Under the pieces are notes generated by a model that made no database searches, was not told the DNA's origin, and was given only the letters and a program-made list of their open reading frames with translations. Shown in pieces: positions 3,850 to 23,523 of a DNA stretch of 64,000 nt. Origin of the DNA: an uncultured Gemmatimonadales bacterium (lineage in GTDB: Bacteria; Gemmatimonadota; Gemmatimonadetes; Gemmatimonadales; GWC2-71-9); the NCBI GenBank assembly GCA_963798915.1, contig CAWCVB010000005.1, positions 249,291-313,290 of the forward strand, written 5' to 3'. Numbering within the stretch: position 1 is the first letter of the stretch; the number at the start of each line of letters is the position of its first letter. The position numbers were made by a program, and so were the translations under genes.

Positions 3850-3857
3850 CCCGGCAC

Positions 3858-5168: not shown

Positions 5169-5172
5169 GGGG

Positions 5173-6258: not shown

Positions 6259-6377
6259 CTGGATTTCCCTGGCAAACGGAACCCACGAGGGCCGCAAGCC
6301 ATGTTAGGAACACGTACTCTAGAGGGTTCCCAGCCGATTGTAAACACTCGCTGCCTCAGGTCGGGGCCATTTCGCGC

Positions 6378-8980
6378 GTGACTCCACTCGTTTTTCACCT
6401 GCTGCCGCACACCCATTGGGACCGCGAGTGGTACGAGACCCGCGCCGGTTTCCTGGCGCGGCTCGTGCCCATGTTGGACCAGGCACTGGATCAGCTTGCC
6501 ATCGCCCCCGCCGTGACCTTTCTGCTGGACGGCCAGACCGTACTCCTGCGCGACTACCTGGCAGTCCGGCCAGGAGCCGGACCGAGCGTCGCCCGGATGG
6601 CCGAGCGCGGCCAGCTGCAGGTTGGTCCATGGTACATCCTCGCCGACGAGCTCATCCCCTCGGGAGAGTCGCTGGTCAGGAACCTGCTCCTTGGCCGGAG
6701 CGACGCAGCGGAGCTCGGCGGCGCGCTCGCGACACTCTACTCGCCGGATGCCTTCGGGCATCCCGGCACGCTGCCCATGCTGGCGCGCGAGTTTGGCCTT
6801 GGCGGTCTGGTGCTCTGGCGGGGCCGCGCCGGGCAGCACGATCTGTTCCGCTGGCAGGCTCCAGACGGGACCACGCTGCCAGTGTATCACCTTCCGCCCG
6901 AGGGCTATGAAGTGGCAGCCGGGCTGCCGGCCGATCCCGCTCGGCTCCGGGTGGTGTGGCCCGCGCTGCGGGCTCGGCTGGTCGCATCGAGCTACCTCGC
7001 GGCACGTCGCGCTCTTCATGGGTGCCGATCATCACGGCCTGCGCAACGACATCGAGGCCGTTGCCAGCTCGCTTCGGGTCTTGGAGCCCGCCGCAGAGGT
7101 GCGAATCTCCCGCCTGGATGACTTCTTGACGGTGGCGGCGGCCGAGGCTGAGATCAACGGAATCGCCGTGGAGAGCGGCGAGCTCCGGGCGGGATACGGC
7201 CACACCTGGTCGCTGCAGGGGGTGCATGGAACCCGTCTGCCACTGAAGCGGCTCAACAGTGCGACGGAATTGCTGCTGGAGCGGCTCGCCGAGCCGCTGG
7301 CATCGCTCGCGGCCATGGTCGCCGGCCGGCGCCGGGCGGGATCGGCCGCGCAACTGGCTGCTGCCTGGCGTTCGGTGCTGGAGTCACAGTTCCATGACAC
7401 CATCTGCGGGACCGTGAATGACGCCACGGCGAATGAAGCCGCAATGAGACTGGCGAATGCAGGCACACTGGGCCGCGCAGTACTGCGCACTAGCCTCGAG
7501 ACGCTCGGCGCTATTTCCGATGTCGCGGTCGCGATCCAACCTGACGCCGGCACCTTGGTCAGCTGGAACCCGCGGGTAACTGGTATCGGCGGTATCGGCA
7601 TCGTCGATATCACCCGCTTCCGAACCGACTTGCTGGTTGGTCCGCCCGACGGGCGGACCCCGCGGAAGGTGGAGCGGCACAGTGCCTTCTCGCTGCAGCT
7701 GCGGGATGGCACTCCGCTGGAAATGCAGGTGCTCGGCAGGCGGCTGGCGATCGAACGGATCGATTCCGCTGCACGGTATCCCGATGCCGACGTGGTTGAT
7801 CTGGTGCGCGTGGCCGTGGCCATGCCGCCGCAGCCCGGCCTCAGTCTCACGCAGGGCGGCATTCACTCGGCGGCGAGCCGCTCCAATCCGCGGTATCCCG
7901 TCACGGGCCGTGGACTGACGCTCGAGAATCACTGTCTCCGGGTTGCGGCCAATGAAGACGGCTCGCTCGATCTTTCCAGTCGGAACGGCGGCACGTTGTC
8001 CTCCAGCTTGAGCTGGGAGATCCAGGCAGACGCCGGGGATTGCTACACGGTGGGCCTGCGGGGTTCAGTCCGGCGCATCCACTGGCCCATGCAGTGGCGC
8101 CTCCTGGCCAGCGGCCCGCTGGTCGCCGCGCTGGAGGGGCGCGCCGAGGCGGATGAGCTCACGGTGCGGCTGCTGGTGGAGCTGCGGCGCGATGAGCCAT
8201 TCGTCCGCTGGCGCGGCGACCTCTGGAACGACGGGTGCGACCGCCGGCTCCGGCTCCAGGTTCCGGTCGGAGGCGCGCGCCAGGCGGTGGCCGGGTCGAC
8301 GTTTGGATTTGAGCGCCGTCCCGTTCCGATGGCTTCGCCAACTTGGCCCGGCGAGCAGTTCGTTTCGACCGCGCCAGCGCACCGTTTCGTGGCGGCTGCC
8401 GGTGGAATGGGAGGTGCAGCGCTCCTGGTGCCCGGATTCATGGAATACGAACTGAGTGACGACGGCAGCCTCCGGTTTACGGTGTTGCGCTCGGTGGGCG
8501 AACTTTCACGGGACGACCTGCCGGAGCGACCGGGCCATGCTGCCTGGCCCACCTCAGTGCCCGGCGCCCAGTGTCCCGCGGCGTCCTCCTGTCACCTGGC
8601 ACTCCTGCCATGCACCAGGGCGGAGGCCGAGGATCCCGTGCATCTGTTTGACGCGTGGGAGGCCGCCTTCCTGGGTCCGCAGTTGCGCTGGTTCCGGGGC
8701 CGCCAGGGATCCCCGTCGGCCGACGCTTCCATCGAGCTTGAGGGAGCAGGCCTGGTGGTCAGCGCCGTCAAGCCGGCCCAGGATGGTGATGGCGTCCATC
8801 TTGCGCGCCCTGAATCTCACCGATACAGCGGTGGAGGGATGCTGGCGCATACGTCCCGCCCCATCGCAGGCATGGCTGGTCCGGGCGGACGAGTCGCCGG
8901 TCGGTCCGCTCGCGATCGCCGGTGAGACGGTGCGCTTCCGGGCCGCCGCTCGTTCGCTCGTTTCCATCAGGTCGCAATGA
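6378..8980 (+). CDS. GH38 alpha-mannosidase-like glycosidase with two frameshifts (~6987, ~8797)
   Basis: HTHWDREWY and YSPDAFGH in the first frame; MGADHH, QFHDTICG, LRSVG in the second; ILRALN...RAD tail in the third; TGA overlaps next ATG. Confidence 0.88.
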
Positions 8981-10074
8981 CACTACCAGCGGCAAGGCTT
9001 CGGTCCCTCGACGTGTTCCGGGGTCTGGCCATCGCCGGCATGATCCTGGTCAATAATCCGGGGAGCTGGAGCTACGTCTATCCACCGTTGGACCATGCGC
9101 CCTGGAATGGCTGGACGCCCACCGATCTGGTCTTTCCATTCTTTCTTTTTGCCGTCGGCGTGGCCATGACCTACTCGTTCCGTCGCCGGGCAGGCGAGGG
9201 TGCCACTCGAGCGGCACTCTTCCGGCGAATCGTCTGGCGTTCGCTGCTTCTGTTCGTGATCGGCCTGCTGCTCAACCTGATCCCGGGTTTCGATTTGCAT
9301 ACGCTGCGGATAATGGGAGTGCTGCAGCGCATTGCCGTTGTCTATTTCATCAGCGCAACACTGTTCCTGGTGTGCTCGCGCCGGGTCCTGGCGCTTGTTG
9401 GCGGTGCCCTGCTGATCGGCTATTGGCTGGCCATGACGCTGGTCCCGGTTCCCGGGTTCGGTGCCGGGGTGTTAGAGCCGGTGGGCAACCTGGCCCAGTT
9501 CATCGACAGTCACATTCTCGCCGGTCACATGTGGAAGCCAGAGTGGGATCCGGAAGGCCTGCTGAGCACGCTGCCCGCTGTAGTCACGAGCTTGCTGGGT
9601 GTCTACACCGGCCTCACCCTCCAGCGGGCCGAACTTCCGGCCGAGCGCACCAGCCGGGTGGCTGTGGCAGGATTCGTCGCGCTGTTGGCTGGCTGGATCT
9701 GGAACAGCTGGTTTCCCATCAACAAGAACCTCTGGACCAGCTCATACGTGCTGTTCACAGGCGGACTGGCCATGCTGACGCTGGCCACACTTTACTGGTG
9801 GATCGACGTGCGGCAGTACCGCCGCTGGAGCACGCCGCTCCGCGTGTATGGCGTGAACGCGCTGCTGGCCTTCGTGCTCTCGGGCCTGGTCGCCCGGTTG
9901 TTGAACGTATGGAACATTGATCACGAGCCTGCCCGAGGCTGGATGTATCGGCACCTCTTTGCCCAGTGGGCGGGCTCGATGAACGGTTCACTGTTCTTCG
10001 CGATGGCCTACGTGGTCTTCTGGTATGCCGTCCTGCTGGTGCTCGACAAGCGGGGATGGAACGTCCGATTGTGA
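8977..10074 (+). CDS. Heparan-alpha-glucosaminide N-acetyltransferase-like / NagX-like membrane protein
   Basis: RLRSLDVFRG, MILVN, HAPWNGWTPTDLVFPFFLF, GVLQRI, DPEGLLST, PINKNLWTSSY. Confidence 0.9.
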   Translation: MTLPAARLRSLDVFRGLAIAGMILVNNPGSWSYVYPPLDHAPWNGWTPTDLVFPFFLFAVGVAMTYSFRRRAGEGATRAALFRRIVWRSLLLFVIGLLLNLIPGFDLHTLRIMGVLQRIAVVYFISATLFLVCSRRVLALVGGALLIGYWLAMTLVPVPGFGAGVLEPVGNLAQFIDSHILAGHMWKPEWDPEGLLSTLPAVVTSLLGVYTGLTLQRAELPAERTSRVAVAGFVALLAGWIWNSWFPINKNLWTSSYVLFTGGLAMLTLATLYWWIDVRQYRRWSTPLRVYGVNALLAFVLSGLVARLLNVWNIDHEPARGWMYRHLFAQWAGSMNGSLFFAMAYVVFWYAVLLVLDKRGWNVRL

Positions 10075-10092
10075 CCAGCCTCGCCAGGCTGG
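10075..10092. terminator. Short hairpin between convergent genes
   Basis: ccagcct-cgcc-aggctgg; no U-tract. Confidence 0.35.
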
Positions 10093-10097
10093 CGGCG

Positions 10098-10943
10098 TCA
10101 GCCGCGGCGCGTCGGGTCGAGCGCATCCTGCAGTGCGTCACCCAGCAGGGTGGACGCCAGGACCACCAGCACGAGCGCCACGCCGGGCGCGAGTGCCACC
10201 CACGGCGCATTCACGAGCGTGTCACGCCCGGAGGCGATCATCGTGCCCCACGATGAGGCGGGAGGTTGGACGCCGACGCCAAGGAAGGAGAGCCCCGCCT
10301 CGAGCATGATGGCGTTGCCAAATCCGAGTGCTGCCGCGACCAGCGCCGGAGTGAGCACGTTGGGGATCACGTGCCGCATGAGCAGGCGGAGCCGGTTCCC
10401 ACCCAGCGCTCTCGCGCTATCAATAAACGGCCGGGCCATGATCGAACGCGCCTCGCCAAAGACCAGTCGTGCGACGCTCATCCACCCGGTGACGCCCAGG
10501 ACAATCACTACCAGCGCGGCACTCGGCTGCCAGAGCGCGGCAAGCAGGAGGAGGAGCACCACGCGGGGCAGGGCCAGGGCGAAGTCCGTGGCGGCGAGCA
10601 GGCCGGTGCGCACTACGCCGCGGGAGGCGCCGGCGATGGCGCCGATCGAGACGCCGAGCAGCGAAGAAATGAGTACGGCCAGCGCCCCGACCGTGAGCGA
10701 CAGGCGAGCACCATAGAGCAGGCGAGCCCAGACATCCCGGCCCAGCCGGTCGGTGCCAAGCAAATGATAGATGCCTCGAAAGTCGGTGGAGCCCGGCCCC
10801 AGAAACCGGGTGGCGACCACGTCAGTCGTGGTATCGGGCCCGATGCTGGTGACCATAGGCGCCGCCACGGCCAGCGTGATAATGGCGCCCAGGATCAGTG
10901 CGCCTGCGAAAGCGCGGCCGTCCCGTCTCCTGCGGCCCATCAT
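10098..10943 (-). CDS. Peptide/nickel-type ABC permease, DppC/OppC-like
   Basis: HLLGTDRLGRDVWARLLYGARLSL, FIDSARALG, HVIPN, EAGLSFLGVG, SWG; ATGA overlap with dppB-like gene. Confidence 0.92.
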   Translation of the reverse strand: MMGRRRRDGRAFAGALILGAIITLAVAAPMVTSIGPDTTTDVVATRFLGPGSTDFRGIYHLLGTDRLGRDVWARLLYGARLSLTVGALAVLISSLLGVSIGAIAGASRGVVRTGLLAATDFALALPRVVLLLLLAALWQPSAALVVIVLGVTGWMSVARLVFGEARSIMARPFIDSARALGGNRLRLLMRHVIPNVLTPALVAAALGFGNAIMLEAGLSFLGVGVQPPASSWGTMIASGRDTLVNAPWVALAPGVALVLVVLASTLLGDALQDALDPTRRG

Positions 10944-11911
10944 CGGGCGTGTCCCCGAAGCCGCGGATCGGTCCATGCCGCGAGCCACTCGGCCAGCAGA
11001 TTGCCCACGACGACCAGTGTTGCGATGATCGCCGTGGAGGCCATGACGACCGGATAGTCGCGCGCCTGGACAGCGCCCACCAGGACCCGGCCCACTCCGG
11101 GCCATGCGAAGATAGCTTCGACGAACACCGCGCCGGAGAACAGGGCCGGCAGCGAAAGGCCGAGCAGCGTCACCACCGGGACGAGCGCGTTCCGAAGCAC
11201 ATGATGGAAGCGGATGCGACGCCTCGAGATGCCCTTTGCAGCGGCGACCGTGACGAACGCTTCGCCCTGAATGTCGAGCATCGCGGCGCGGACAAATCGC
11301 GCGGTGCCCGCGAGCCCGATCAGGGTGAGGGTGCAGAGTGGCAAGAGCAGGTGCCGGAGTGCGTCGAGAATCCGGGCTCCCGGCGCCAGGAAATCTGCAT
11401 CGAGTCCGGTGGCCCCGAAGGCGGGCAGCCAGCGCAGCGCGTAGGCGAACAGCATGATGAGCATGAGCCCGAGCCAGTAGCTGGGCATCGCGAACAGGGT
11501 GACCGTCAAGATGGAGAGGCCGGTGTCCACGGACGAGCGGTTGTGCGCCGCCTGCACCGCGCCGATGGCGATGCCGAGCAGGTAGCTCAAGAGCAGCGAC
11601 AGTCCGGCCAGCTCCACGGTGCGCGGCCATGCGCGGCCGATCATCCGGCGGACCGGCTCGCCCGTCGCGATGGAGCGGCCCCAGTCGCCGCGCACGAACG
11701 CCGCGGCCCAGCGGCCCAGCTGCGCCGGAAGCGGCTGGTCCAGTCCCAGCGCCCGACGCTGCGCTGCAACCTGTCCCGGAGCCGCGTCGGGTCCGAGAAG
11801 TCGCCGCACCGGGTCGCCCGGAGCCGCGTGGAGCAGGATAAACGTCAGCACCAGGACCCCGCCAATCACGGCGGCACCACGAGCCAGGCGGACCAGCATG
11901 GATGCCAGCAT
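10940..11911 (-). CDS. Peptide/nickel-type ABC permease, DppB/OppB-like
   Basis: APGDP, GLDQPL, GDWGRS, AAAKG, HVLRNAL, VEAIFAWPGVG, RDYPVV. Confidence 0.93.
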   Translation of the reverse strand: MLASMLVRLARGAAVIGGVLVLTFILLHAAPGDPVRRLLGPDAAPGQVAAQRRALGLDQPLPAQLGRWAAAFVRGDWGRSIATGEPVRRMIGRAWPRTVELAGLSLLLSYLLGIAIGAVQAAHNRSSVDTGLSILTVTLFAMPSYWLGLMLIMLFAYALRWLPAFGATGLDADFLAPGARILDALRHLLLPLCTLTLIGLAGTARFVRAAMLDIQGEAFVTVAAAKGISRRRIRFHHVLRNALVPVVTLLGLSLPALFSGAVFVEAIFAWPGVGRVLVGAVQARDYPVVMASTAIIATLVVVGNLLAEWLAAWTDPRLRGHAR

Positions 11912-11927
11912 GGGCCTATTCTACCGC
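11912..11927. promoter_or_regulatory. Candidate bidirectional leaderless promoter (overlapping -10 elements)
   Basis: + strand TATTCT 11917-11922, 5 nt before ATG 11928; - strand TAGAAT 11923-11918, 6 nt before ATG 11911. Confidence 0.6.
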
Positions 11928-13361
11928 ATGATGGAAGCACGAAACAGGCGGAAGGCCTGGGTGGTAATTTTGGCCCTCGCCGGGTGCACCCCGTCCGCGT
12001 CCCGGCGCGGCGCCACCGTGATGTTCGCATCCGGGGCCGACCTGCAGAGTATCAATCCCCTGCTCACGCCGCATCCGCTGGCGCACCAGGTGCAGCGCTA
12101 TGTGCTCTTCACCACCCTCGTCCGGCGCGACTCCCTCATGCAGATGCGGCCCTACCTCGCGCGCGCCTGGCACTGGTCAGCCGGCCGGCGAGAGCTCACG
12201 TTCACCCTGCATTCCGATGTCCGCTGGCATGACGGCGCGCCGACCACTGCCCGCGATGCTGCATGGACACTGGAGGCCGCCTGCGACAGCGTCACGGGAT
12301 TCCCGCGCTACCAGGAGCTCCGGAACCTCAAGGCGGTTCGCGCGACCAACGACAGCACGCTCGTGCTCACCTTCGGCGATGCGCAGTCCGCCATACCTGA
12401 CGTGCTGAGCGACCTGGCGATCCTGCCGGTACATCTGCTGGGCCGGGTGCCGCACGCCGCGCTTCGATCTGCCCAGTTCAACGAGCACCCGGTGGGCAAC
12501 GGGCCTTTTCGCTTTGTCTCCCACGAGGCCAATCGTCGCTGGGTGTTTCGCCGGAATGCGGACTTCCCGGCGTCACTCGGCGGCCCGCCGAAGCTCGATC
12601 GGTTCATCGTGGTTGTCGTGGATGAGCCCGCGACCAAGTTGGCGGCACTCACATCAGGCGAGCTCGATTTCGCCGGCATTCAGCCGGCGCATGCCTCCTT
12701 CGTCCGGCGAAATCCTGACCTGGCGGTCGTCACCTACCCGCTGCTCTTCACCTATGGGATCGTGCTGAATACCCGGCATGCGCCGTTCGACGACCTGCAC
12801 GTGCGCCAGCGGCTCTCGAACGCACTCGATCGCACGGAGATCGTGAATGGCTACCTGTTCGGCTTCGGGACGCCTGCGTGGGGACCGGTCCCGCCAGGCT
12901 TGCCGGGTGCGTTGGCACCGCCCGCTGAGGCAGAGGGCAGCGCGGTTCCTGCCGCGGCGGGCAGGATATCGTTCGAGCTGCTGACGGTCGGGTCTGGTGA
13001 AGCGGCCCTGGAGCAGCTGGTACAGGCACAGCTGGCGAGGGCCGGATTCGACGTTCATATCCGCCAGATGGAGCTGTCCGCCTTTCTCGATCGAGTCCAT
13101 GGCGCTGATCATGAGTTCGATGCCGCAGTCCTCGGCGTCGCCGGCGATCCTGGGCTCGGCTACCTTGCCCCGTTGCTCGAATTGAGCGGACTCGCCTCGA
13201 GCGGCGGCGCTGAGCAGCAGCAGCGTACATTTGCTCAGGAGATTCCCGTCGCGTTTCTCTATCACGCACGAGGCCTGCAGGGTATGAACCGCCGGGTACA
13301 TCACGTGACCATGGATCTCCGCGGCGAGCTGCCGACTGTGGCGCAGTGGACGGCCCAGTGA
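11928..13361 (+). CDS. ABC substrate-binding lipoprotein, family 5 (peptide-type)
   Basis: LAGC lipobox; PYLARAW, LTFTLHSDVRWHDG-PTTARD, PVGNGPFRF. Confidence 0.9.
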   Translation: MMEARNRRKAWVVILALAGCTPSASRRGATVMFASGADLQSINPLLTPHPLAHQVQRYVLFTTLVRRDSLMQMRPYLARAWHWSAGRRELTFTLHSDVRWHDGAPTTARDAAWTLEAACDSVTGFPRYQELRNLKAVRATNDSTLVLTFGDAQSAIPDVLSDLAILPVHLLGRVPHAALRSAQFNEHPVGNGPFRFVSHEANRRWVFRRNADFPASLGGPPKLDRFIVVVVDEPATKLAALTSGELDFAGIQPAHASFVRRNPDLAVVTYPLLFTYGIVLNTRHAPFDDLHVRQRLSNALDRTEIVNGYLFGFGTPAWGPVPPGLPGALAPPAEAEGSAVPAAAGRISFELLTVGSGEAALEQLVQAQLARAGFDVHIRQMELSAFLDRVHGADHEFDAAVLGVAGDPGLGYLAPLLELSGLASSGGAEQQQRTFAQEIPVAFLYHARGLQGMNRRVHHVTMDLRGELPTVAQWTAQ

Positions 13362-14341: not shown

Positions 14342-17049
14342 CGGCGGAAGATCTCGACGTGCGTCGGGCCCGGGTCAATGAGTCTGCCGACCTGCTGGCA
14401 TTGGAAAAGCGGATCGCCCAGGCGTCGGAACGGCTCCTGGCCACGATGCCGGTGGTGCCGGGCGAAAAGGCGCTGCTGTCGCGCGGTGGCGGACACTGTC
14501 CGGCTGACGGTACGCCGCTGGGTTTCGATCCCTGGTGCCCCGAACGGTGGACCTGCGCCGAATGTGGCGCGACGGCCGAGGGCGAACGGCACCGGCGCCA
14601 CTGGGCGCGCTACCAGCATCTCTGGCTCGCGGAACAGTCCGCCTCGCTCGCCGCTCTGTCGGCCCTCGGGGGGCATTCGCAGGCCGCCGATCGGGCAGCC
14701 GCCATCCTGCGAGCCTATGGCGACTACGCCGGGTATCCCAACGTTGACAACGTGCTAGGCCCGGCTCGCCTGTTCTTCTCCACCTATCTCGAATCGGTCT
14801 GGCTGAGCAACTGGCTTGCCGCCGCCGTGATGCTGCGGGAGGCCGGCCAGCTTCCCGCGGATCTGCCCGCGATCGTGGACGAGGTGGCCGATGAGGCCGC
14901 ATCCATCATCGGCGAGTTCAACGAGGGGTTCTCCAACCGACAAGTCTGGCATTCGGCGGCGCTCAGCGCCGTCGCCGTGTGGTTCGAGGATGCCGAGCTG
15001 GCGGAGCGTGCCATCGAAGGCGACAATGGCCTCCTCTCCCTCATGGCGCACGGTCTGGGCGGGGACGGGATGTGGCATGAGGGCGAGAACTATCACCTCT
15101 TCGCCCTGCAGGGCATGCTGACCGGCATTCGTTGGGCCAGGCTTTGCGGCATGGACCTCGTCGCTGATCCGTCGCTGGCGGCACATCTCGCGGCGGCCCT
15201 CCGCGCGCCGCTGATCACGGCGCTGCCTGATGCGACCTTCCCGGCGCGAAAGGATTCGCGATTCGGTGTGTCGCTCGCCCAGCCCATGTACCTGGAACTC
15301 TGGGAAGTCGGTCTGGGAATGCTCACCGGACGTGAGGGAGCGGATCTCGGGGGCATGGCCGACTGGCTTCGCGAGCGATACCGTGATCCGGCGCCGCCAG
15401 CCCGCCTGTTCGACTCGTGGTTGTATGAAGCCGGCCAGCCACTCCCACCGATGCGGGACCGGACCTCGCTCTCATGGAACGTCCTGCTGGAGGGCGTGCC
15501 TGAGCTGCCCGAGGAGGAGACCTGGACACCGCCCAGCACTCTCATGCAGTCGCAGGGGCTCGCCATCCTGCGTGACCCTCGGCGGTACGTGAGCCTTGAA
15601 GCTGGAGTGTGGAGCGGTGGGCATGGGCATCCCGACCGGCTCCATCTTTCGTACTTTGCCGATGGCGTCAACTGGCTCCCGGATCAGGGCGCAGGCAGCT
15701 ATCAGGATCCCGATCTCTTCTGGTATCGCTCGACCCTGGCGCACAACGCGCCGCTGCTGGATGGGCGATCACAACATGGTGGCGATGCGCATTGTGACGC
15801 ATTCGAGGTCGGGCCGTGGTCCTGGGTCCAGGCCAGTTGGGACGATGTCACGCGGACAATCGTGCTGGGACCCGACTACCTGCTCGATGTGGTGCACCTT
15901 GCCAGCGCGCAGCGCCGGCGACTCGAGCTCCCCTGGCATTTCGCCGGGACGCTCACCAGTACGCCTTCGGAACTCGCGACCGACGTGTCACTGGGCGACT
16001 TTGTTCGGGACGTGCGCCATATCGCGCCTGACGCGGAACGACAGGGCTGGTCGCTCGCCTGGATCGAGCGTGACCAGCACCTGATTGCCAGCATGGCTGG
16101 CGAGGGGGATCTCTACTCGGCCGACGGTCCGGGCCTGCCGGGCGGTCCCGGCCGGCGGTTCGTGTTGCGCCGCGCCAGCGGGATCGATCTCCGTTTCGTG
16201 ACGGTCGTGTGCGCAGAAGGTGAGGCACCGCACCTATCACTGGAAGGGGCGACCATCATCGTGGAGCGCGGCGGCGAGCGGCACGTGCACGCCGCACTCA
16301 GTGACGGATGGGAGGTGCAGCTCGGCACCAGTCGGGTCCGGTTGGGCGGCCGCCTGCTCAGACAACCACCTTTCGAACCGTTGTTGACGCGAATCCGCAA
16401 CGAGCCCGCCCGCGGCACCGCCCTCCTGGTGCCGGAGCCGCCGGAGCTCGACGGCACGCTCCAGGGCTTCGACACCACCGCACCGCTCATGCTGGACCAC
16501 GATGACCAGTACCGCCGAAGCGAGTCGCCCTACCTGGGCCCCGAGGACTTCAGCGCCGAGGCCTCGGTCAATTGGGACCAGGATGCCCTGTACGTCGCCG
16601 CGGAGATCCACAAGGATGCGCTCCAGTTCCGCCCTGGCGACTCGACGCCGCTCGACTTTGACAACGAAGTGGAGGATATCAACTCGGATGGATTGCAGCT
16701 CTATCTTCGGGCTCCTGACGGTGAACTCTGGGGGGCGCTCGTGGTGCCGGAGGAAGGCGGCGGCCTCCGCGTTCGCGGCGTCGGCGAGACATTGGTCACG
16801 CCGGGCTCCGTGACCGGCGCCTGGCAGCGAGTCAAGGGGGGTTATCGCGTCACCCTCGCCCTCGCACCGACGTTCTGGGGCGACCTTGCCCTCGCCAACG
16901 AGGTCCGCTTCGACCTTGCGATCAACGAAATGCGCCCGGGCCGACAGCGTCGCGCGGGACAATTGATCTGGAGCGGCGGCGGCGGCTGGGTCTACCTGCT
17001 TGGTGACCGGCAGGACGTTGCACGGCTCGGTGTGCTCGACCTGGCATGA
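14335..17049 (+). CDS. Heparinase II/III-like polysaccharide lyase with C-terminal CBM9/DOMON-like domain
   Basis: SNRQVW, WHEGENYH, GHGHPDRL, WYRSTLAHN; C-terminal WDQDALYVA, NSDGLQLY, FDLAINE; N-terminal CPxDG...CxxC; GTG after GGAGGG. Confidence 0.8.
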   Translation: MVTAEDLDVRRARVNESADLLALEKRIAQASERLLATMPVVPGEKALLSRGGGHCPADGTPLGFDPWCPERWTCAECGATAEGERHRRHWARYQHLWLAEQSASLAALSALGGHSQAADRAAAILRAYGDYAGYPNVDNVLGPARLFFSTYLESVWLSNWLAAAVMLREAGQLPADLPAIVDEVADEAASIIGEFNEGFSNRQVWHSAALSAVAVWFEDAELAERAIEGDNGLLSLMAHGLGGDGMWHEGENYHLFALQGMLTGIRWARLCGMDLVADPSLAAHLAAALRAPLITALPDATFPARKDSRFGVSLAQPMYLELWEVGLGMLTGREGADLGGMADWLRERYRDPAPPARLFDSWLYEAGQPLPPMRDRTSLSWNVLLEGVPELPEEETWTPPSTLMQSQGLAILRDPRRYVSLEAGVWSGGHGHPDRLHLSYFADGVNWLPDQGAGSYQDPDLFWYRSTLAHNAPLLDGRSQHGGDAHCDAFEVGPWSWVQASWDDVTRTIVLGPDYLLDVVHLASAQRRRLELPWHFAGTLTSTPSELATDVSLGDFVRDVRHIAPDAERQGWSLAWIERDQHLIASMAGEGDLYSADGPGLPGGPGRRFVLRRASGIDLRFVTVVCAEGEAPHLSLEGATIIVERGGERHVHAALSDGWEVQLGTSRVRLGGRLLRQPPFEPLLTRIRNEPARGTALLVPEPPELDGTLQGFDTTAPLMLDHDDQYRRSESPYLGPEDFSAEASVNWDQDALYVAAEIHKDALQFRPGDSTPLDFDNEVEDINSDGLQLYLRAPDGELWGALVVPEEGGGLRVRGVGETLVTPGSVTGAWQRVKGGYRVTLALAPTFWGDLALANEVRFDLAINEMRPGRQRRAGQLIWSGGGGWVYLLGDRQDVARLGVLDLA

Positions 17050-18212
17050 ACGATCACCTGCCCGGGTTCACGTCGACGGGAAGCAAGCGGCCTGAATCGC
17101 TGTATGGCTCGGCCCATCCTGCGGGCGTTCCGCTGCGCATGCGTTCGGCGGCGGGATGCCGGGTGTCAGGCGAGGATGGTCGTGAGTATCTCGATTTCAT
17201 CATGGGATTAGGGGCCGTGGCCCTGGGCTACGCGCACCCCGCTGTCACCACGGCCATCCAGCGAGCGGCCGCCGAAGGCGTGGTGGGTCCACTCTCGCCG
17301 GTGCTCGAGGAGCAGGTTGCTGCGCATCTGGGGCGGATCATGCCGTGGGCTGAGCAGGTGCGGTTTCTGAAGACCGGGGCCGAGGCAGTTGCCGCCGCGA
17401 TTCGGCTGGCCCGGAGCTTCAGCGGGCGCTCGCGGGTGTTGGGCTGCGGCTACCATGGATGGCTTGACGGTACCCAGGTGGCGGGCACGCAAGGCGTGCC
17501 GCCGGAGATCACCTCATGCTTTTCCGTGCTGCCCTTCAACGACCCGGACGCGGCGGCGCGTGAGGTACGGCTCGCGGGCGACGCCCTGGCCGCCGTCATT
17601 GTCGAGCCGGTCATCGAAGAGCCTCCCTCGGTCGAGTGGCTGGCTACCCTCCGCCGTGAAACGCGACAGGTGGGCGCGCTGCTCATCTTCGATGAGATCA
17701 AGACGGTCGGGCGTGTCGCGCTGGATGGGGCCGCGGGGCGCTGGGGTGGCGAGCCGGATCTGGTGGTGCTCGGCAAGGCCATCGCGAACGGAATGCCGCT
17801 GGCCGCGGTTGCCGGTCGGCGGGACGTGATGGCCGAGGCGACGCGCACCTGGATCAGTTCGACCCTTGCGACCGAGTTTGTCTCGCTCGCAGCGGCCGAA
17901 GCCACGTTGCTCGAGCTGGAACGCCAGTCTGTGCCCGCTCACCTCCAGCGCGTCGGCACGCTGCTGCTGGATGGACTGCACCGGCTGGCTGACCGATATC
18001 CTGCTGCCCTGCGCCGGGCGGTCGGGCTGCCGGAAATGTGCTTCCTGGAGTTCGTGACCGGGGACCACGGCCGGGACATTGTGGCCGGCTGCGCCCGCCA
18101 GGGCGTACTCTTCAAGCGTTCAGCTTACAACTTCGTGTCCCTCGCACACGACGAGCGCGCCGTTGCCGGCGCGCTCGACATATTGGACTCCGTGGTGCAG
18201 GGCGTCTGCTAA
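17046..18212 (+). CDS. Class III PLP aminotransferase (GSA aminomutase-like)
   Basis: DGREYLDF, LGYAHP, KTGAEA, GYHGW, FDEIKT, LGKAIANG. Confidence 0.9.
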   Translation: MNDHLPGFTSTGSKRPESLYGSAHPAGVPLRMRSAAGCRVSGEDGREYLDFIMGLGAVALGYAHPAVTTAIQRAAAEGVVGPLSPVLEEQVAAHLGRIMPWAEQVRFLKTGAEAVAAAIRLARSFSGRSRVLGCGYHGWLDGTQVAGTQGVPPEITSCFSVLPFNDPDAAAREVRLAGDALAAVIVEPVIEEPPSVEWLATLRRETRQVGALLIFDEIKTVGRVALDGAAGRWGGEPDLVVLGKAIANGMPLAAVAGRRDVMAEATRTWISSTLATEFVSLAAAEATLLELERQSVPAHLQRVGTLLLDGLHRLADRYPAALRRAVGLPEMCFLEFVTGDHGRDIVAGCARQGVLFKRSAYNFVSLAHDERAVAGALDILDSVVQGVC

Positions 18213-18709
18213 CGGGATCCGGGCGATGGCTGGCCACCACCGGCGCGTCCCCGGCGTTCCTGCCTCTGCCGCTCGGTTTCGCCCTTCTCCCACGCGTCAT
18301 ACTTGGTCTTCTGCTCGGGCGTGAGCAGGGCGGACACGCCCTCATCGAACGTCTGGGCCGCCTGTTGCAAGGAGGCCATCTGAGCCCGCGAGCCCTGCAT
18401 CATTTCTCTCGCCTGGTCCCGGTTGCCGGCCTGCATGGCTTCCCTGGCCTTGGCTCGCGTACTGGCGAGGCTGTCGCGCATGGCCTTGGTGGCCTGCAGG
18501 TGGCTGGCGCGAAGCTTGGTGTACTTGGCCGATTGATCGGCATTGAGGCCGAGCGCTTTGGTGAGCACGTCGGCGGTGGGGGGAGCTGCCGTGACATAGG
18601 GACTCATGCCGGCCATCCGGCCCATGCCAGGCCCGGTGCCGGCTTGGGCCGCAAGGGCGGCCGGTGCGAGCAGGGCCAGGAATGCGAACTGCAGGGAACG
18701 CGTCTTCAT
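18209..18709 (-). CDS. Secreted helical Spy/CpxP (LTXXQ)-like protein
   Basis: Signal peptide MKTRSLQFAFLALLAPAALAAQA; LGLNADQ and LLTPEQKTKY; GGAGG RBS. Confidence 0.7.
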   Translation of the reverse strand: MKTRSLQFAFLALLAPAALAAQAGTGPGMGRMAGMSPYVTAAPPTADVLTKALGLNADQSAKYTKLRASHLQATKAMRDSLASTRAKAREAMQAGNRDQAREMMQGSRAQMASLQQAAQTFDEGVSALLTPEQKTKYDAWEKGETERQRQERRGRAGGGQPSPGSR

Positions 18710-18787
18710 GCTGATGCCTCCAAGGGGTTCGTGCGGGCTCACTGTCGGGCCCGGTTGAGATACGCGCGAGGGCTGGACGGCGTTGAC

Positions 18788-18816
18788 TCGACAGCGGCAC
18801 CCGGCCGCGTCATCTT
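18788..18816 (+). promoter_or_regulatory. Candidate sigma70-like leaderless promoter of the amidohydrolase operon
   Basis: TCGACA-17 nt-CATCTT, then 6 nt to GTG 18823; no RBS. Confidence 0.45.
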
Positions 18817-18822
18817 CCGCCT

Positions 18823-19623
18823 GTGCTGATCGACGTCCACGTCCACTTCCTCCACGCTCGTTCGCCCCGGGCCGACTGGCGCGAACGCAACGCAAGCCGC
18901 CTGCGGGCTGCTGAACGCATCGGGATCACCTGGCAGGTCTCGTCTGTGCTGGGGTCCTGGGGCGCTCGCTCGCCCATCTACTTCCCGTCGCCCGCGGACG
19001 TCACCCTCGCCAACGAGATCCAGCGTGAGATTGTGTCCCAGTATCCGGACCGGGTGCGGGGCTATGCCGTGGTCAATCCCAACTTTACGGAGCATGCGCT
19101 CCAGGAAATTGAGCGGGGGAGGCATGGTGGCATGATCGGGGTCAAGCTTGCCGCCAGCCGGCGCGCCGATGACGACCTGCTGGATCCGGTCTGCGTTGCG
19201 GCTGAGGACCACGGCTTTCCCGTGCTGCAACATGTGTGGCAGCACCGGCGCCAGGATTTTCCGGGTCAGGAGGCGTCGGACGCGGTGGAACTGTGTGCGC
19301 TTGCACGGCGGCATCCGCGCGTCGCCTTTATCCTGGCGCATATTGGCGGCGGCGGCGACTGGCTCCATTCGCTTCGAGCCGTGCGGAGAGCCGAGAACGT
19401 ATTCGTAGATCTTTCGGGCAGTGGGGTCGATGGCGGCATGCTGGAGCAGTGTATTCACGCAGTCGGCGTCGGGCGGCTGCTGTGGGGTACCGATCTCACC
19501 ATCGGGACAGGCCTGGCCAAGCTGCGATATCTGGAGCGGCAACTCGACGCAGCAGCGCTGGACCAGGTGCGCTGGCGCAACGCCGCATCCATCTTCCCGG
19601 CTGGCAGCTTTCCGGAGCGCTAA
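18823..19623 (+). CDS. Amidohydrolase family metal-dependent hydrolase
   Basis: IDVHVH, GVKL, LQH, LAHIGGG, LLWGTD. Confidence 0.9.
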   Translation: MLIDVHVHFLHARSPRADWRERNASRLRAAERIGITWQVSSVLGSWGARSPIYFPSPADVTLANEIQREIVSQYPDRVRGYAVVNPNFTEHALQEIERGRHGGMIGVKLAASRRADDDLLDPVCVAAEDHGFPVLQHVWQHRRQDFPGQEASDAVELCALARRHPRVAFILAHIGGGGDWLHSLRAVRRAENVFVDLSGSGVDGGMLEQCIHAVGVGRLLWGTDLTIGTGLAKLRYLERQLDAAALDQVRWRNAASIFPAGSFPER

Positions 19624-20402
19624 TGCGAATCGACGTCAACGCTTCGCTTGGTTCCTACCCTTGGCGCCGGGTTCCGGGCACCTCCGCCGAGGCACTCAGC
19701 ACGAGCATGGATCGCACCGGTATCGACGAGGCCTGGGTGTTCCACCTCCCCGGTCTGACCTGGCGGGATCCGATGGAGGGCAACGCCTGGCTGCTCGATG
19801 CGTGCCGTCAGAACGCTCGCTTCGCGCCGGTGCCAGCCGTCCATGCGGGCTTGCCCGGGTGGGCCGATCACCTCAAGCAGCTCGCATCAGACGGCGTGCA
19901 GGCCGTGCGTGCCGATCCCACCTGCTATGGACTCGCGCCAGCCGGAACGGAAATGCGCGCGCTGGTTCGCGAATGCGCGAGACTCGACGTGGTGCTGATG
20001 CTCGCGGTCCGCTTCGAGGACGGCCGCCAGCGCCACCCGCTCGATCACGCGGGAGAATTGCCGGCCGCGGCGGTGCGTTCCCTGATCCGGGAGGACGATA
20101 GCGCCCGTCTGGTGGTGACCCACGCCGACCGGAGCTACATCGAGGAAGTGCATTTCGGCTCCACGCCGGACCAGTCACGGCGCATCTGGTGGGACATCTC
20201 CTGGATCTGGGGACCGCCGGAGGATCACCTCGAGATTCTGCTGGAGACGGTTGGCGCCACTCGCTTCCTCTTCGGCACCGGACAGCCGCTGCGGCTGCCT
20301 GAGACGCCCATCGCGCGGCTGGACCTGCTCGACATCGCCATGGCCGACCGGGCTCTGATCGAATCGGGGAATGCGCTGTCGCTGCTGGGCCGTGGCAGGT
20401 GA
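19623..20402 (+). CDS. Amidohydrolase-fold protein with degenerate metal ligands
   Basis: IDVNASLG (no HxH), VTHA, FLFGTG (no Asp); TAATG coupling to the upstream gene. Confidence 0.8.
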   Translation: MRIDVNASLGSYPWRRVPGTSAEALSTSMDRTGIDEAWVFHLPGLTWRDPMEGNAWLLDACRQNARFAPVPAVHAGLPGWADHLKQLASDGVQAVRADPTCYGLAPAGTEMRALVRECARLDVVLMLAVRFEDGRQRHPLDHAGELPAAAVRSLIREDDSARLVVTHADRSYIEEVHFGSTPDQSRRIWWDISWIWGPPEDHLEILLETVGATRFLFGTGQPLRLPETPIARLDLLDIAMADRALIESGNALSLLGRGR

Positions 20403-21280
20403 GTGCGCTGCAGGAGCGGCTGCGCGACGGGGTTGTGGCCGCGGTTCCCGTCCCCTGCCAGGGCCGCGAGATCGACCAGCGTGCCCAACGCCGATATGCG
20501 GAAAGCATGGCGGCGGAGCCATTGGCCGGCGTCGCGGTCTGGGCCCATACCGGCCGTGGACGGCACCTGTCCGCTGAGCAGCGCCGCTGCGTGCTCGAGA
20601 CGTGGCGGGAAGTGCTGGCGGGGAAGATCATTGTCGCCGGGGCCTATGATACCGGCACGGCCATCGATGCCCGCCGGCGCGGCGCCGATGCGCTGCTGAT
20701 CCATCCCAGCGCCGACGACACGATCCGCTACCACGAGCGGCTCAGCCGTGAGCTGCCCGGCATCGTGTTCTGGCTGTACGAGGCCGCAGGCGGCGTGCCG
20801 TACGACGACGCGACGTTGCACCGACTCCTCGAGCTTCCGCAGATCATCGGGATCAAGATCGCGACGCTCGACTCGGTCATGACCTACCAGCATCTCGTCT
20901 CGCTGGCCCGTCAGCACCCCGACCGTCTGATCCTCACTGGTGAGGATCGCTTCCTGGGCTACTCCGTCATGATGGGCGCCGACGGTGCGTTGATCGGCAT
21001 GGCCTCGGCGGTTCCAGCCCTGGCCACGTCGCTGTTCCACGCCCGAAACCAGGAGGATCCGGCCCGCTTCCTCGCCTTGACCCGGGCGGCGGACGCCTTC
21101 GGCATGGCCACCTTCGCCGAGCCGATGGAGGGCTACATCCGCCGGATGCTCTGGGCCGCCGCCACCGAGGGGCGGCTGCCCCTGGCCGCGTGCGATGACC
21201 CGTGGGGGCCGACGCTACCCGAGACCGAGATCGCTGCTGTGGCGCTGGCGGTGCGGGATGCGCAGTCGGCTCTCCGCTGA
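20399..21280 (+). CDS. Dihydrodipicolinate synthase (DHDPS/NAL) family protein
   Basis: WAHTGRG, GADALL, FWLYE, IIGIKIA, TGED, GADGALIG. Confidence 0.85.
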   Translation: MSALQERLRDGVVAAVPVPCQGREIDQRAQRRYAESMAAEPLAGVAVWAHTGRGRHLSAEQRRCVLETWREVLAGKIIVAGAYDTGTAIDARRRGADALLIHPSADDTIRYHERLSRELPGIVFWLYEAAGGVPYDDATLHRLLELPQIIGIKIATLDSVMTYQHLVSLARQHPDRLILTGEDRFLGYSVMMGADGALIGMASAVPALATSLFHARNQEDPARFLALTRAADAFGMATFAEPMEGYIRRMLWAAATEGRLPLAACDDPWGPTLPETEIAAVALAVRDAQSALR

Positions 21281-22403
21281 TTTTGACCGGTTCGGCCGGG
21301 AGCTGCCGCGCGAATGGGCGTCGCATGTGCGCGAGCACCACCGGATCGACTTGAGTGCCTCCTATCTGGGCGAGGCGCTTCCGCATCCGCTGGGCAAGGC
21401 CTCGGGGCAGTTGTCCCTGAATTCCCGCCAGCTGGAGCAGGACCAGGAAGCCGGCCTTGCGTTCATCGTGCTGAAGACCGTGATCGGTGAGCGTCCCGAT
21501 GGAACGCGCCGCATGCAGGCGTGGGCCACCGGTGAGACGCGCATGACGGTCGAGCAGCGGGTCGAACCCGATGGCCGGAAGGGCTGGACGGTGACGTGGA
21601 AGGGACGAGGATGGTCCGGCTCGCTCGACAGCTACGCTGCCCTGCTGCGGGAAGGGCGAGGAATGACGCATGCGGGCGGACCACTGATCGTGCCATCCGT
21701 CAAGCTTCATCTTCCTGCCAGGGGTGAAGCATTCGACAGGGGGGAGTATCGTCACACGCTGGCAGTGCTGCAGCATGCCTGGGGAGAAGGTCCGCTGCTG
21801 CTGGAGAAAGACTTCTCGCCCACACTTGCAGGCGATTCCCGTTCGGAGGAACAGCAGACTGTCCTCCGCTGGGTCAGGGAGGTGCCCGGTATTTTCCGGG
21901 CAGCGGCCGCCGGCCCGGTGCGACTCTCGCTCAAGCTGATGAATGCCCGGTTCGGCGATGCGTTCCAGGTGCAGATGATGCAAGCGGCACGGGAAGCTGC
22001 GGGTGTGACGGTGTTCAATCGCCTCTGGAGCGAGGAACGGCAGGTCGCCTACGGCGGCTGGGCCCTTTCGGATCGCAATCTTCGGGTGCTGGACCTGGCG
22101 GGCCCCGGAGGGCCAACGCGTTGCGGCACCGGGAACATCTGTTCAGGGCGGCAAGTGGCCGCTTACGCGCGCCGGGGCTGCCAGTCAGTACAGTTGCACA
22201 CCTTCTTTCAGCTCCCGCTGTCGGCCTATCCGGCACGAGCCGGCAGCCGGACGCAGCGCGCGGTTCACGCGCTGGTCTTCCATCCGGAAACTGGCTTGAT
22301 CGCCGCGCTGCTCGACGCGGAGGAGGCGGGACTGCTGGCGCGTCGGGATGGGCTGCTGCACTTCAGTGACTTTTGTGGTCCGACCGGCAGCCATGAAGAT
22401 TGA
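21258..22403 (+). CDS. Hypothetical protein with dihydroorotate/dihydropyrimidine dehydrogenase-like FMN barrel
   Basis: PLGKASGQL, GLAFIVLKTV, EKDFSP, LKL, VFNR, GNICSG, GCQSVQL follow the DHODH motif order. Confidence 0.55.
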   Translation: MRSRLSADFDRFGRELPREWASHVREHHRIDLSASYLGEALPHPLGKASGQLSLNSRQLEQDQEAGLAFIVLKTVIGERPDGTRRMQAWATGETRMTVEQRVEPDGRKGWTVTWKGRGWSGSLDSYAALLREGRGMTHAGGPLIVPSVKLHLPARGEAFDRGEYRHTLAVLQHAWGEGPLLLEKDFSPTLAGDSRSEEQQTVLRWVREVPGIFRAAAAGPVRLSLKLMNARFGDAFQVQMMQAAREAAGVTVFNRLWSEERQVAYGGWALSDRNLRVLDLAGPGGPTRCGTGNICSGRQVAAYARRGCQSVQLHTFFQLPLSAYPARAGSRTQRAVHALVFHPETGLIAALLDAEEAGLLARRDGLLHFSDFCGPTGSHED

Positions 22404-23523
22404 CCGCGTCGAGCTGTATCAGCTGACACTACCGCTCGCCGAACCATTTGTCATCTCGGGTGGCAGCATGCTGCAGCGCGAATCGCTCCTGGTCCGACTC
22501 TGTTCGCCGACGGGCGCTGAAGGCTGGGGAGAGTGCCCGCCGTTCGCCCTGCCGTTCTACTCCGAGGAGACGCTCGGCTCCGCCCAGGTCATGCTCGAGC
22601 GGATCCTGCTCGGTCGGGTCGAAGGACAGGAATTCGCCACGCCAGCCGCGGTGCACGACGCGCTCGTCCTCAACGTGCGAGGCAACCCGTTTGCGAGAGC
22701 GGCGATCGAGACGGCGGCATGGGATCTCGTTGCCGACGAGCATCGGTCCAGCCTGGTGCAGCTGCTCGGCCAGGCACTCGACGCCACGCCGAAGAGTGCC
22801 GTGCCGTGCGGGGTGGCGCTCGGTATTCCGGCATCGGGCGAGCTGGATGCGCTGCGGATGCAGGTCCTGGAGGCGCTCGACACCGGGTATCGCCGGGTGA
22901 AGATCAAGATCAGGCCCGGATGGGACACCACCCCCGTGCGCGCGGTGGCGGCACTCCTGGCTGGAACCGGCGTACCACTCACGGTGGATGCGAACGGCGC
23001 CTACCCATGGCCGGCCGGTCTCGACAGCTTGCGTGCACTCGACGAATTCGGGCTCCTGTATATCGAACAGCCACTTGCCCCCGACGAGTTGCTCGGCCAC
23101 GCGGAGCTCGGCCGGGCGCTGACCACGCCGATCTGTGTGGACGAAACACTGACGAGCGTTCGCGTGGCGCGCCAACTGGTCGAACTGGGCGGCCCCAGCA
23201 TCTGGAACATCAAGGTGCACCGGGTCGGAGGCCTCACGGAGGCTGGCCGGATCTGGCAGGTGGGCCGGCAGCACGGCATCAGTCTGTGGGCCGGCACCAT
23301 GCCCGAGTCCGGGATAGGCAGCCAGGCCCCGCTGGCGCTGGCGGCACTTCCGGGCTTTGACCTGCCATCCGATCTCGAGCCGAGTGCGCGCTGGTTCGGG
23401 CGCAACCAGGACGTCATCAAGCTGGTGATGAGCGGCGACGGCCTGATGACGGTTCCGCGGACCTCCATCGGCCGCCTGATCGACCGGAAACGGCTTGGGG
23501 CTGCAACCCGTCGGCTGCGCTGA
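22393..23523 (+). CDS. Enolase superfamily OSBS / N-acylamino acid racemase-like enzyme
   Basis: GWGEC, PFYSEET, KIKI, VDAN, IEQP, VDE, NIK, GTMPESG, PSD. Confidence 0.88.
   Translation: MKIDRVELYQLTLPLAEPFVISGGSMLQRESLLVRLCSPTGAEGWGECPPFALPFYSEETLGSAQVMLERILLGRVEGQEFATPAAVHDALVLNVRGNPFARAAIETAAWDLVADEHRSSLVQLLGQALDATPKSAVPCGVALGIPASGELDALRMQVLEALDTGYRRVKIKIRPGWDTTPVRAVAALLAGTGVPLTVDANGAYPWPAGLDSLRALDEFGLLYIEQPLAPDELLGHAELGRALTTPICVDETLTSVRVARQLVELGGPSIWNIKVHRVGGLTEAGRIWQVGRQHGISLWAGTMPESGIGSQAPLALAALPGFDLPSDLEPSARWFGRNQDVIKLVMSGDGLMTVPRTSIGRLIDRKRLGAATRRLR

Follow-up and report, generated by a model that had tools for sequence, protein, structure and literature searches.

Gene content and conservation of the cluster

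The window analysed here is a stretch of 64,000 nucleotides (G000:C5:249291-313290) from the genome of an uncultured Gemmatimonadales bacterium, G000 (3.3 Mb, 17 contigs, 84.8% complete, GC ~67%), and our subject is a gene cluster of ~17 kb at positions 6378-23523 of that window. It joins transporter genes to genes for a glycoside hydrolase, a lyase-like protein, a sugar kinase, an aminotransferase, two amidohydrolases and several further enzymes (Table 1). An earlier, sequence-only reading had proposed that these genes form an undescribed pathway for the import and breakdown of a glycopeptide or other sugar-amino acid substrate. Gene families were called by Pfam and NCBIfam scans with curated cut-offs applied, and every family named in that reading was found at about the coordinates it had assigned. 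Below, Hep is the lyase-like gene, AT3 the class III aminotransferase, AH1 and AH2 the Amidohydro_2 pair, SBP the solute-binding protein, and TIMx the gene previously called DHODH-like. Start and stop codons overlap at the GH38/NagX, SBP/GHMP, GHMP/Hep, Hep/AT3, AH1/AH2, AH2/DHDPS, DHDPS/TIMx and TIMx/NSAR junctions. The overlaps behind the two translationally coupled runs that had been proposed are thus confirmed, but a gene on the opposite strand, encoding an LTXXQ protein, stands between the runs. This gene was matched in close relatives only (L013, L014, L033, L035, L036), and in other relatives the gap between AT3 and AH1 holds a Yip1 gene or no gene.

Table 1. Features of the locus, with family matches and occurrence. 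Occurrence is counted among the 80 species-level Gemmatimonadales loci nearest to the Hep alignment (the best 80 of at least 597 matches); denominators are the loci long enough to show the gene in question.
Feature	Position	Strand	Matches	Occurrence (loci)
GH38 alpha-mannosidase-like (MngB-like)	6378-8980	+	Glyco_hydro_38N 84 bits, Alpha-mann_mid 44 bits; NF007331 151 + 97 bits	31/33 (within 10 kb of Hep)
NagX-like / HGSNAT-like polytopic membrane acyltransferase	8977-10074	+	NF046061 192 bits (cut-off 480), DUF5009 23.5 bits	3/33 (full-length related loci)
Opp/Dpp ABC permease, DppC-like	10098-10946	-	BPD_transp_1 85.6 bits, Opp4C 228 bits	52/52
Opp/Dpp ABC permease, DppB-like	10940-11911	-	BPD_transp_1 132.8 bits	52/52
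SBP, family-5 solute-binding lipoprotein (SBP_bac_5)	11928-13361	+	PF00496 218 bits	64/64
GHMP kinase, HddA/fucokinase (anomeric sugar kinase) group	13346-14341	+	GHMP_kinases_N and GHMP_kinases_C	74/74
Hep, PL17-like lyase-fold protein	14335-17049	+	PF07940; weak CBM9 match PF06452; PF05426 on homologues	
AT3, class III (GSA-aminomutase-like) pyridoxal-phosphate enzyme	17046-18212	+	Aminotran_3 165 bits	65/65
LTXXQ/Spy-CpxP-like periplasmic protein (outside the conserved cluster)	18209-18706	-	PF13801 + PF07813	
AH1, Amidohydro_2 enzyme	18823-19623	+	PF04909 78.5 bits	47/54
AH2, divergent Amidohydro_2-like partner	19623-20402	+	PF04909 26.0 bits (cut-off 26.4)	46/54
DHDPS/NAL-family class I aldolase-like	20399-21280	+	PF00701 43.4 bits	34/47
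TIMx, divergent DPD/DHODH-like TIM-barrel	21258-22403	+	no Pfam match; AlphaFold model pLDDT 89.3	34/47
NSAR/OSBS-subfamily enolase-superfamily enzyme	22393-23523	+	TIGR01928 238 bits (cut-off 200.65)	34/47

A scan of a genome collection placed the nearest loci in the order Gemmatimonadales, and of 41 relatives, among them the unpublished genome G023, 36 gave a Hep match. When 20 regions from three families of the order (f1, f2 and f3) were compared, the arrangement GH38 / DppC-DppB / SBP-(GHMP)-Hep-AT3-AH1-AH2 recurred almost everywhere, with Hep identities of 33-55%; the exception was L021, a 9.4-kb contig that carries Hep only. Of the loci with GH38 nearby, 17 have it upstream of the permeases and 14 have it downstream of Hep, where, in the loci inspected, it comes after NSAR or AH2. 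Synteny of the chromosomal backbone does not readily account for a gene that moves and nonetheless remains in the cluster.

The same coherence is seen in a sample of 151 genomes of the phylum, each at least 85% complete and including the unpublished genome G084; none of our conclusions depends solely on an unpublished genome. Hep orthologues occur in 54 of 72 f1 genomes, in 18 of 31 f2 genomes (with one further weak match) and in both f3 genomes; outside the order the sample gave weak matches only, in families f5 and f10 (E 8e-11 to 1e-4). AH1 is present in 54/72, 19/31 and 2/2 genomes of f1, f2 and f3 and in none elsewhere, the same genomes as Hep but for G110, and it is missing from all 18 Hep-negative f1 genomes. 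GH38 (50/72, 18/31 and 2/2) and TIMx (35 genomes) are confined to Hep-positive genomes. Counting G000, 74 of the 106 sampled genomes of the order have the cluster, and the absences span about ten genera. The cluster is therefore, among the genomes searched, limited to the order Gemmatimonadales, where it is inherited and lost as a unit. Chance juxtaposition of separate operons, which the earlier reading had named as grounds for its refutation, is not the pattern found when synteny was checked.

What did not stand is the idea of a single, uniform 17-kb cluster. The core consists of the transporter, GHMP, Hep, AT3, AH1, AH2 and GH38, the last of these broken in G000 itself. DHDPS-like, TIMx and NSAR are accessory, each being found in 34 of 47 loci, and the NagX-like gene, found in three of 33 full-length related loci, is accessory too.

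In five cluster-less genomes, the DUF58 gene that flanks the cluster was found in one and the flanking CPA antiporter gene in two. In an empty-site comparison G132 and G069 shared no nucleotide similarity over the compared stretches, and no clean insertion site was seen.

The proteins of the core

The start codon of Hep is a GTG at 14335, and its product combines an N-terminal Cys-rich motif, an alginate-lyase-type toroid, a heparinase II/III C-domain and a CBM9-like C-terminal domain. A single-sequence search of the PDB reached the PL17 family at E 0.003 only. A profile of 16 Hep sequences, in contrast, matched the PL17 lyases 9irq (E 5e-27), 4nei (2e-26) and 7bjt (4e-22), each over two stretches that cover both the toroid and the heparinase II/III C-domain, with heparinase III (E 8e-5) and ulvan lyase (E 2e-3) as weaker matches. 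In Alg17c, according to PMC4765187, neutralisation falls to Asn201 and His202, with Tyr258 serving as acid and Tyr450 as base; the same paper reports that the H208F change in the PL17 enzyme Smlt2602, H208 being the counterpart of Alg17c His202, alters uronate specificity. In our alignment Asn201 corresponds to the invariant N200 of Hep, Tyr258 to Y252 and Tyr450 to Y455, and the HGH..D..H motif of Alg17c corresponds to H429/H431, D449 and H469; the two tyrosines and the motif residues are invariant as well. His202, however, is replaced by an invariant arginine, R201, and the full catalytic set of PL17 is consequently not present.

As judged from these alignments, Hep is closest to the PL17 exolytic uronate or oligoalginate lyases. 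Distant though its kinship with PL17 is, it probably retains beta-eliminating activity, directed at a different uronate, and the arginine in place of the neutralising histidine suggests a different +1 sugar. With the PL17 exolyases Alg17c of Saccharophagus degradans, AlgL17 and Zobellia AlyA3, Hep shares the two-domain match, the Asn/Tyr/Tyr residues and the HGH..D..H motif, and it too would be a cytoplasmic enzyme behind an importer, as in alginate loci. No N-terminal hydrophobic stretch is seen in the translation of either Hep or GH38, in agreement with the earlier statement that neither has a signal peptide. Apart from the arginine, Hep differs from these enzymes in its extra N-terminal Cys-rich segment and its C-terminal CBM9-like domain, and in size (~900 amino acids, against 700-750 for PL17 enzymes). 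Its neighbours are also different, being an aminotransferase, amidohydrolases and GH38, whereas alginate loci carry DEH reductase, KdgK and Eda. A plasmid search with Hep returned just two remote Streptomyces matches, at 26-28% identity.

The GHMP kinase has HddA-type kinases as its nearest structures (PDB 3k85 at E 7e-40, and WcbL, 4usk). It is not a canonical HddA or fucokinase, scoring 130.6 bits against a cut-off of 600 with the HddA model and 114.9 against 721 with that of Fkp. AT3 matches GSA aminomutase (E 3e-42) and the C-6' aminotransferase GenB (E 3e-34) in the PDB. As a HemL it was rejected, with 190 bits (186.8 in the genome search) against a TIGR00713 cut-off of 527. A canonical hemL (555-624 bits) is found elsewhere in the genome in four of five relatives, including G009 of the same genus, and no gene over the cut-off was found in the 84.8%-complete G000; given G009, this gap is probably due to incompleteness. 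In G000 the hemL model matches best to AT3 of the cluster and to another GSAM-like gene, at C2:680638-681522.

AH1 has the metal-site pattern of Amidohydro_2 enzymes (HxH, His, His, Asp). D4, H6, H8, H137, H173 and D224 are invariant, at identities of 55-83% across the order, and we take the metal-site residues to lie on strands 1, 5, 6 and 8 of the barrel. AH2 departs from the pattern, having D-V-N-A where HxH would be and G-T-G-Q in place of the strand-8 Asp, and it keeps an invariant set of its own: D4, E132, D133, R135, R137, H138, D141, H177 and D191. A plasmid search with AH1 matched five haloarchaeal megaplasmids, and in all five homologues AH1 and AH2 are fused into a single protein of 558-565 amino acids. 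The N-terminal half of the fusion is 34% identical to AH1 (E 7e-35) and the C-terminal half 34% identical to AH2 (E 2e-20), with the D-x-N-A...PWR and RQRHP motifs kept. Because of this fusion, we regard AH1 and AH2 as one unit.

The haloarchaeal loci resemble the cluster in one further respect, a class III GSAM-like aminotransferase that lies beside the fusions and is 35% identical to AT3; one locus also has an SBP_bac_5 transporter and Yip1. They are without PL17-like, GH38 or GHMP genes. Instead, the fusions are accompanied by genes for DegT aminotransferases, sulfatases, PIG-L, SIS, KbaZ-like, RidA, Gfo/Idh/MocA and xylose-isomerase-like proteins, in loci that are themselves uncharacterised. 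On the Halomontanus rarus plasmid (L117, 8302-11689) two fused double-Amidohydro_2 genes stand in tandem, in an uncharacterised, amino-sugar-like setting of MR/MLE, C-N hydrolase, M14 peptidase, SIS, and class III and DegT aminotransferase genes.

The SBP has a lipoprotein-type N-terminus, with the lipobox LALAGC in its translation. No close solved relative was found; the best is 8efz, at E 7e-27, and the solved relatives bind diverse ligands. The Dpp permeases and binding protein reported earlier are thus present, but the permeases are transcribed divergently from SBP and the locus is without ATPase genes. The only OppD/F-type ATPase pair of G000 sits in a separate, complete opp operon at C5:397.8-403.5 kb. 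The DppB start (minus strand, 11911) and the SBP ATG (11928 or 11931) are ~16-19 bp apart. This gap leaves no space for two leaders, and therefore the transcripts may be leaderless or the promoters intragenic. A TonB-dependent receptor gene lies within locus L022. L032 (genome G037) carries an insertion between Hep and SBP, at 11531-17575, with genes for a TonB-dependent receptor, a 587-amino-acid protein without a Pfam match and an S9 peptidase.

The domains of the GH38 gene listed earlier are indeed present, but in G000 they do not form one intact polypeptide. The gene runs through three frames (6378-~6983, ~6961-8802 and 8798-8980) with two frameshifts, neither within a homopolymer run. In relatives it is a single open reading frame of ~877-900 amino acids, and the 877-amino-acid GH38 of one relative aligns to 6330-6983, 6961-8802 and 8798-8968 of the window, each in another frame. 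Either the gene is a pseudogene or the assembly contains two indels; we lean towards a pseudogene because the remaining genes of the cluster are unbroken, and GH38 is probably inactive in G000. In four relatives (L038, L045, L066, L087) many cluster genes are split into at least two tblastn pieces; in such long-contig relatives split genes suggest assembly frameshifts and cannot be read as pseudogenes without the reads. The stop codon of the last GH38 frame, at 8978-8980, overlaps the ATG of the NagX-like gene, whose score against NF046061 rules out a canonical NagX.

The accessory module

DHDPS-like, TIMx and NSAR travel as a trio that is separable from the core, and none of its genes was found in f2 genomes. 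The DHDPS-like protein has invariant K153 and Y127, and has HTGRG at the position where we would presumably expect a GTTGE-type motif. It scores 34.5 bits against a cut-off of 206 with the DapA model, which rejects a canonical DapA, and ~24-31 bits with the nanA models. By these scores it is a member of the superfamily and not an equivalog of DapA or NanA.

Foldseek with the AlphaFold model of the divergent TIMx placed pig dihydropyrimidine dehydrogenase (DPD; 7ljt) and DHODHs at the top (E 5e-12, TM ~0.6, 15% identity, probability 1.00), and the alignment holds DHODH-type motifs. In the Atlas clusters nearest to TIMx, 11-19% of the members carry PF01180. No Cys or Ser follows the KLMNARF strand, at the position that we read as the catalytic loop, where the catalytic Cys/Ser of DHODH and DPD would presumably stand. 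The TIMx family is small, with 326 representatives at E<=1e-3 among 1.84 billion; a metagenome-assembled genome labelled Bacteroidota contributes one named member, and a plasmid search with TIMx gave no match.

NSAR is the one assignment in the cluster that exceeds its curated equivalog cut-off. Its PDB matches are 3mwc (E 5e-78) and the Amycolatopsis NSAR (E 4e-70), and in alignment with the latter it keeps KxK, the D/E/D metal ligands and the equivalents of K163, K263 and R266. PMC12006748 describes the NSAR/OSBS subfamily as acting on N-succinylamino acids and gives the roles of these three residues. A function as the MenC of menaquinone synthesis was rejected because the best MenB match in the 84.8%-complete G000 reaches 146.7 bits against a cut-off of 342.7 while two MqnA/MqnD-type genes, of the futalosine route, are over theirs. 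The gene in the cluster is a paralogue specific to its lineage. At other, unrelated loci (for example G027:C4:1617104-1618195; the search included the unpublished genome G122) Gemmatimonadota widely carry a second copy that is 38-46% identical to it, and for the same reasons this copy is also unlikely to be a MenC. The canonical roles of MenC, DapA, HemL and HddA, which, had every enzyme shown its own, would have refuted the earlier reading, are thus each excluded by family cut-offs or by genome context.

Further genes accompany the module in some genomes. A DAO-family oxidase gene lies between DHDPS and TIMx in L058, a gap of equal size is seen there in four more loci and a gap of DAO size in most metagenome loci, and in L019 a DAO gene adjoins AH2. 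Metagenome contigs of 52% GC show the order ROK, DHDPS-like, TIMx, double GNAT, NagB-like (TIGR00502, 113 bits) and SSF symporter. In L157, from the metagenome scan, the trio occurs by itself, next to genes for transaldolase, pyruvate kinase and PGI.

Three known systems share parts with this module. The cluster NSAR agrees with the enzymes of NSAR/OSBS pathways in its TIGR01928 score, Lys pair, metal ligands and R266 equivalent; however, no GNAT succinyltransferase or M20 desuccinylase adjoins it, and the genome lacks a men pathway. The nan and nag clusters have in common with it a DHDPS/NAL-family lyase with Lys and Tyr, the NagX-like gene of the G000 locus and, outside the order, the company that the DHDPS-TIMx pair keeps with ROK, GNAT, NagB-like and SSF genes, but no NanA, NanE, NanK or NagA equivalog was matched and TIMx has no counterpart there. 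With reductive pyrimidine catabolism the locus shares a DPD-like barrel, amidohydrolase-superfamily proteins and a class III aminotransferase. We rejected that pathway for the cluster as a whole on the grounds that TIMx is ~15% identical to DPD and has no Cys/Ser at the presumed catalytic loop. Moreover, the cluster amidohydrolases are of the Amidohydro_2 type, whereas the pyrimidine route uses the dihydropyrimidinase type, and TIMx is missing from many loci that retain AT3, AH1 and AH2.

A possible catabolic route and its alternatives

We suggest, with moderate confidence, that the cluster serves the import and cytoplasmic catabolism of an acidic amino-sugar glycan, for which we infer both the substrate and the order of reactions. 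An acidic oligosaccharide containing a uronic acid, alpha-manno-configured residues and an amino sugar would cross the outer membrane, in some relatives through the TonB-dependent receptor, and would be bound by the family-5 lipoprotein and imported by DppB and DppC with ATPases borrowed from another opp operon. In the cytoplasm GH38 would trim alpha-mannosyl residues and the PL17-like Hep would cut at the uronate by beta-elimination. The HddA/fucokinase-like GHMP kinase may then trap the released sugar as a 1-phosphate, while AT3 and the bipartite AH1-AH2 would convert a nitrogen-bearing product of the 4-deoxy-5-keto-uronate type. Where they are present, the DHDPS-like aldolase, the DPD/DHODH-like flavoprotein and NSAR, joined in some relatives by the DAO oxidase, could take this product to pyruvate and small amino-acid-like fragments. 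A literature search found no description of this enzyme combination or of the cluster, which agrees with the earlier remark that no characterised pathway has it.

It is possible, although unlikely, that the core is more specifically an undescribed cytoplasmic route for 2-amino-uronic acids, for example mannosaminuronic-type residues of walls or capsules, or hexosamine-uronate units. The PL17-like exolyase, in which the arginine would neutralise the carboxylate, would yield a 4,5-unsaturated amino-uronate; the open-chain product would be an alpha-amino-aldehyde/alpha-keto-acid, a structural analogue of glutamate-1-semialdehyde, and the GSA-aminomutase-like AT3 and the two-domain amidohydrolase would process it. 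If so, Gemmatimonadales would have the AT3/AH1-AH2 module in common with haloarchaea, and the DHDPS-like/DPD-like pair in common with the amino-sugar loci of other phyla.

Several observations weigh against an acidic amino-sugar glycan pathway. The cluster contains no ABC ATPase genes by family scans of the locus, no regulator gene, and no reductase, dehydrogenase or KDG-type kinase of the standard uronate route. Every family assignment but NSAR/OSBS falls under its curated equivalog cut-off, and Hep, with an arginine at the neutralising-His position of PL17, might instead be an epimerase or some other protein that is no lyase. Four f2 loci (L027, L028, L029, L031) lack GHMP, and GH38 was not found in four Hep-positive genomes. 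The genomes compared are kin, and therefore the counts of co-absence overstate the number of independent losses. Finally, in f2 and f3 a SpoU methylase gene lies between Hep and AT3, and Lgt, EF-P and alternative complex III genes adjoin; with housekeeping genes in and beside the cluster, part of the synteny could be conservation of the backbone.

The chief alternative to an acidic amino-sugar glycan, still live though rather unlikely, is that of the earlier reading, in which the substrate is a glycopeptide or another sugar-amino-acid conjugate, such as fragments of O-mannosylated peptides or uronoyl-amino acids. Beta-elimination by the lyase-fold enzyme would then free the sugar, while NSAR, DAO, DHDPS-like and DHODH-like enzymes would degrade the amino-acid part. 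NSAR, with its K163, K263 and R266 equivalents, belongs to a subfamily that acts on N-succinylamino acids (PMC12006748). The DAO oxidase of L058, with the equal-sized gap in four more loci, and that beside AH2 in L019 are in keeping with such a role. The hydroxyproline route likewise combines an epimerase, a DAO and a DHDPS-family enzyme. However, a module found in 34 of 47 loci and in no f2 genome cannot define the substrate of the core. The transporter is of the Opp/Dpp peptide type, but a binding protein of the Opp type does not by itself identify the ligand, the best solved relatives of this one (E 7e-27) having diverse ligands, and against the S9 peptidase inserted in the G037 locus stands the absence of any peptidase from the window's locus. 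Outside the order, the DHDPS-TIMx pair keeps company with NagB-like, GNAT and ROK genes and the AH fusion with sulfatases and amino-sugar genes. Because Hep is nearest to PL17, the AH fusion lies with sulfatase, DegT, PIG-L and SIS genes, and the DHDPS-TIMx pair lies with NagB-like, GNAT and ROK genes, we lean towards an acidic amino-sugar glycan over a glycopeptide or sugar-amino-acid conjugate.

Quite improbable, in our view, is the use of a plain oligo-uronate, for example alginate, polymannuronate or glucuronan, which a PL17-type exolyase would cut and an alternative monomer route would process, with the nitrogen chemistry incidental. Among solved structures Hep is nearest to the PL17 oligoalginate lyases, the Tyr pair, the Asn and HGH..D..H are kept, and the H208F change in Smlt2602 alters uronate specificity (PMC4765187). 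Yet the identity between Hep and PL17 is low, at E 0.003 in the single-sequence search, and the locus has no DEH reductase, KdgK or KDPG aldolase. Moreover, AT3 is the most strictly linked neighbour of Hep, in 65 of 65 loci, and neither GH38 nor NagX has a role in alginate use. Still less probable is the absence of any common pathway, with two or three unrelated operons adjoining in a conserved chromosomal region. The housekeeping genes interleaved in f2 and f3, the opposite-strand LTXXQ or Yip1 gene that parts the runs and the flanking HD-GYP gene, syntenic too in several genomes, would fit such an arrangement. It is at odds with the joint presence and absence of Hep, AH1 and GH38 across ~150 genomes, including the 18 Hep-negative f1 genomes without AH1, with the shifting position of GH38 inside the cluster, with the renewed neighbourhood of AT3-like and AH-fusion genes in haloarchaea, and with DUF58 and CPA antiporter flanks that are not conserved in cluster-less genomes. 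HddA/fucokinase-type kinases make sugar-1-phosphates, which are typical salvage intermediates, and GSAM-like aminotransferases act in aminoglycoside biosynthesis, as with the GenB matches of AT3; the GHMP kinase and AT3 could therefore belong to salvage or biosynthesis, in which an envelope sugar is rebuilt from imported precursors instead of being degraded for carbon. We regard this as the least likely explanation of all, as no nucleotidyltransferase, glycosyltransferase or flippase gene lies in or next to the locus, the family scans found no glycosyltransferase or nucleotide-sugar genes in the window, the lyase and GH38 are degradative, and aldolase-like and amidohydrolase genes suit catabolism.

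Few Gemmatimonadales have been cultivated despite their abundance in soils, and knowledge of the carbon sources they use is poor. An acidic amino-sugar glycan pathway would make this cluster a testable and probably new route for an abundant soil glycan, and we believe that the AH1-AH2 fusion and the separable DHDPS-TIMx pair provide handles for enzymology beyond the phylum.

Upstream of the cluster, positions 696-6297 of the window hold genes for a MoxR-type AAA ATPase, an M1-peptidase-like protein, a DUF58 protein and an HD-GYP response regulator, the last of which adjoins GH38 in several relatives at identities down to ~33%. Downstream are two RND efflux systems, one with a membrane-fusion protein and an AcrB-type pump (39688-43802) and one with an OEP, a membrane-fusion protein and an AcrB-type pump (57921-63539). 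The stretch between the cluster and these systems encodes two-component regulators and, at 28897-31746, a hybrid histidine kinase.

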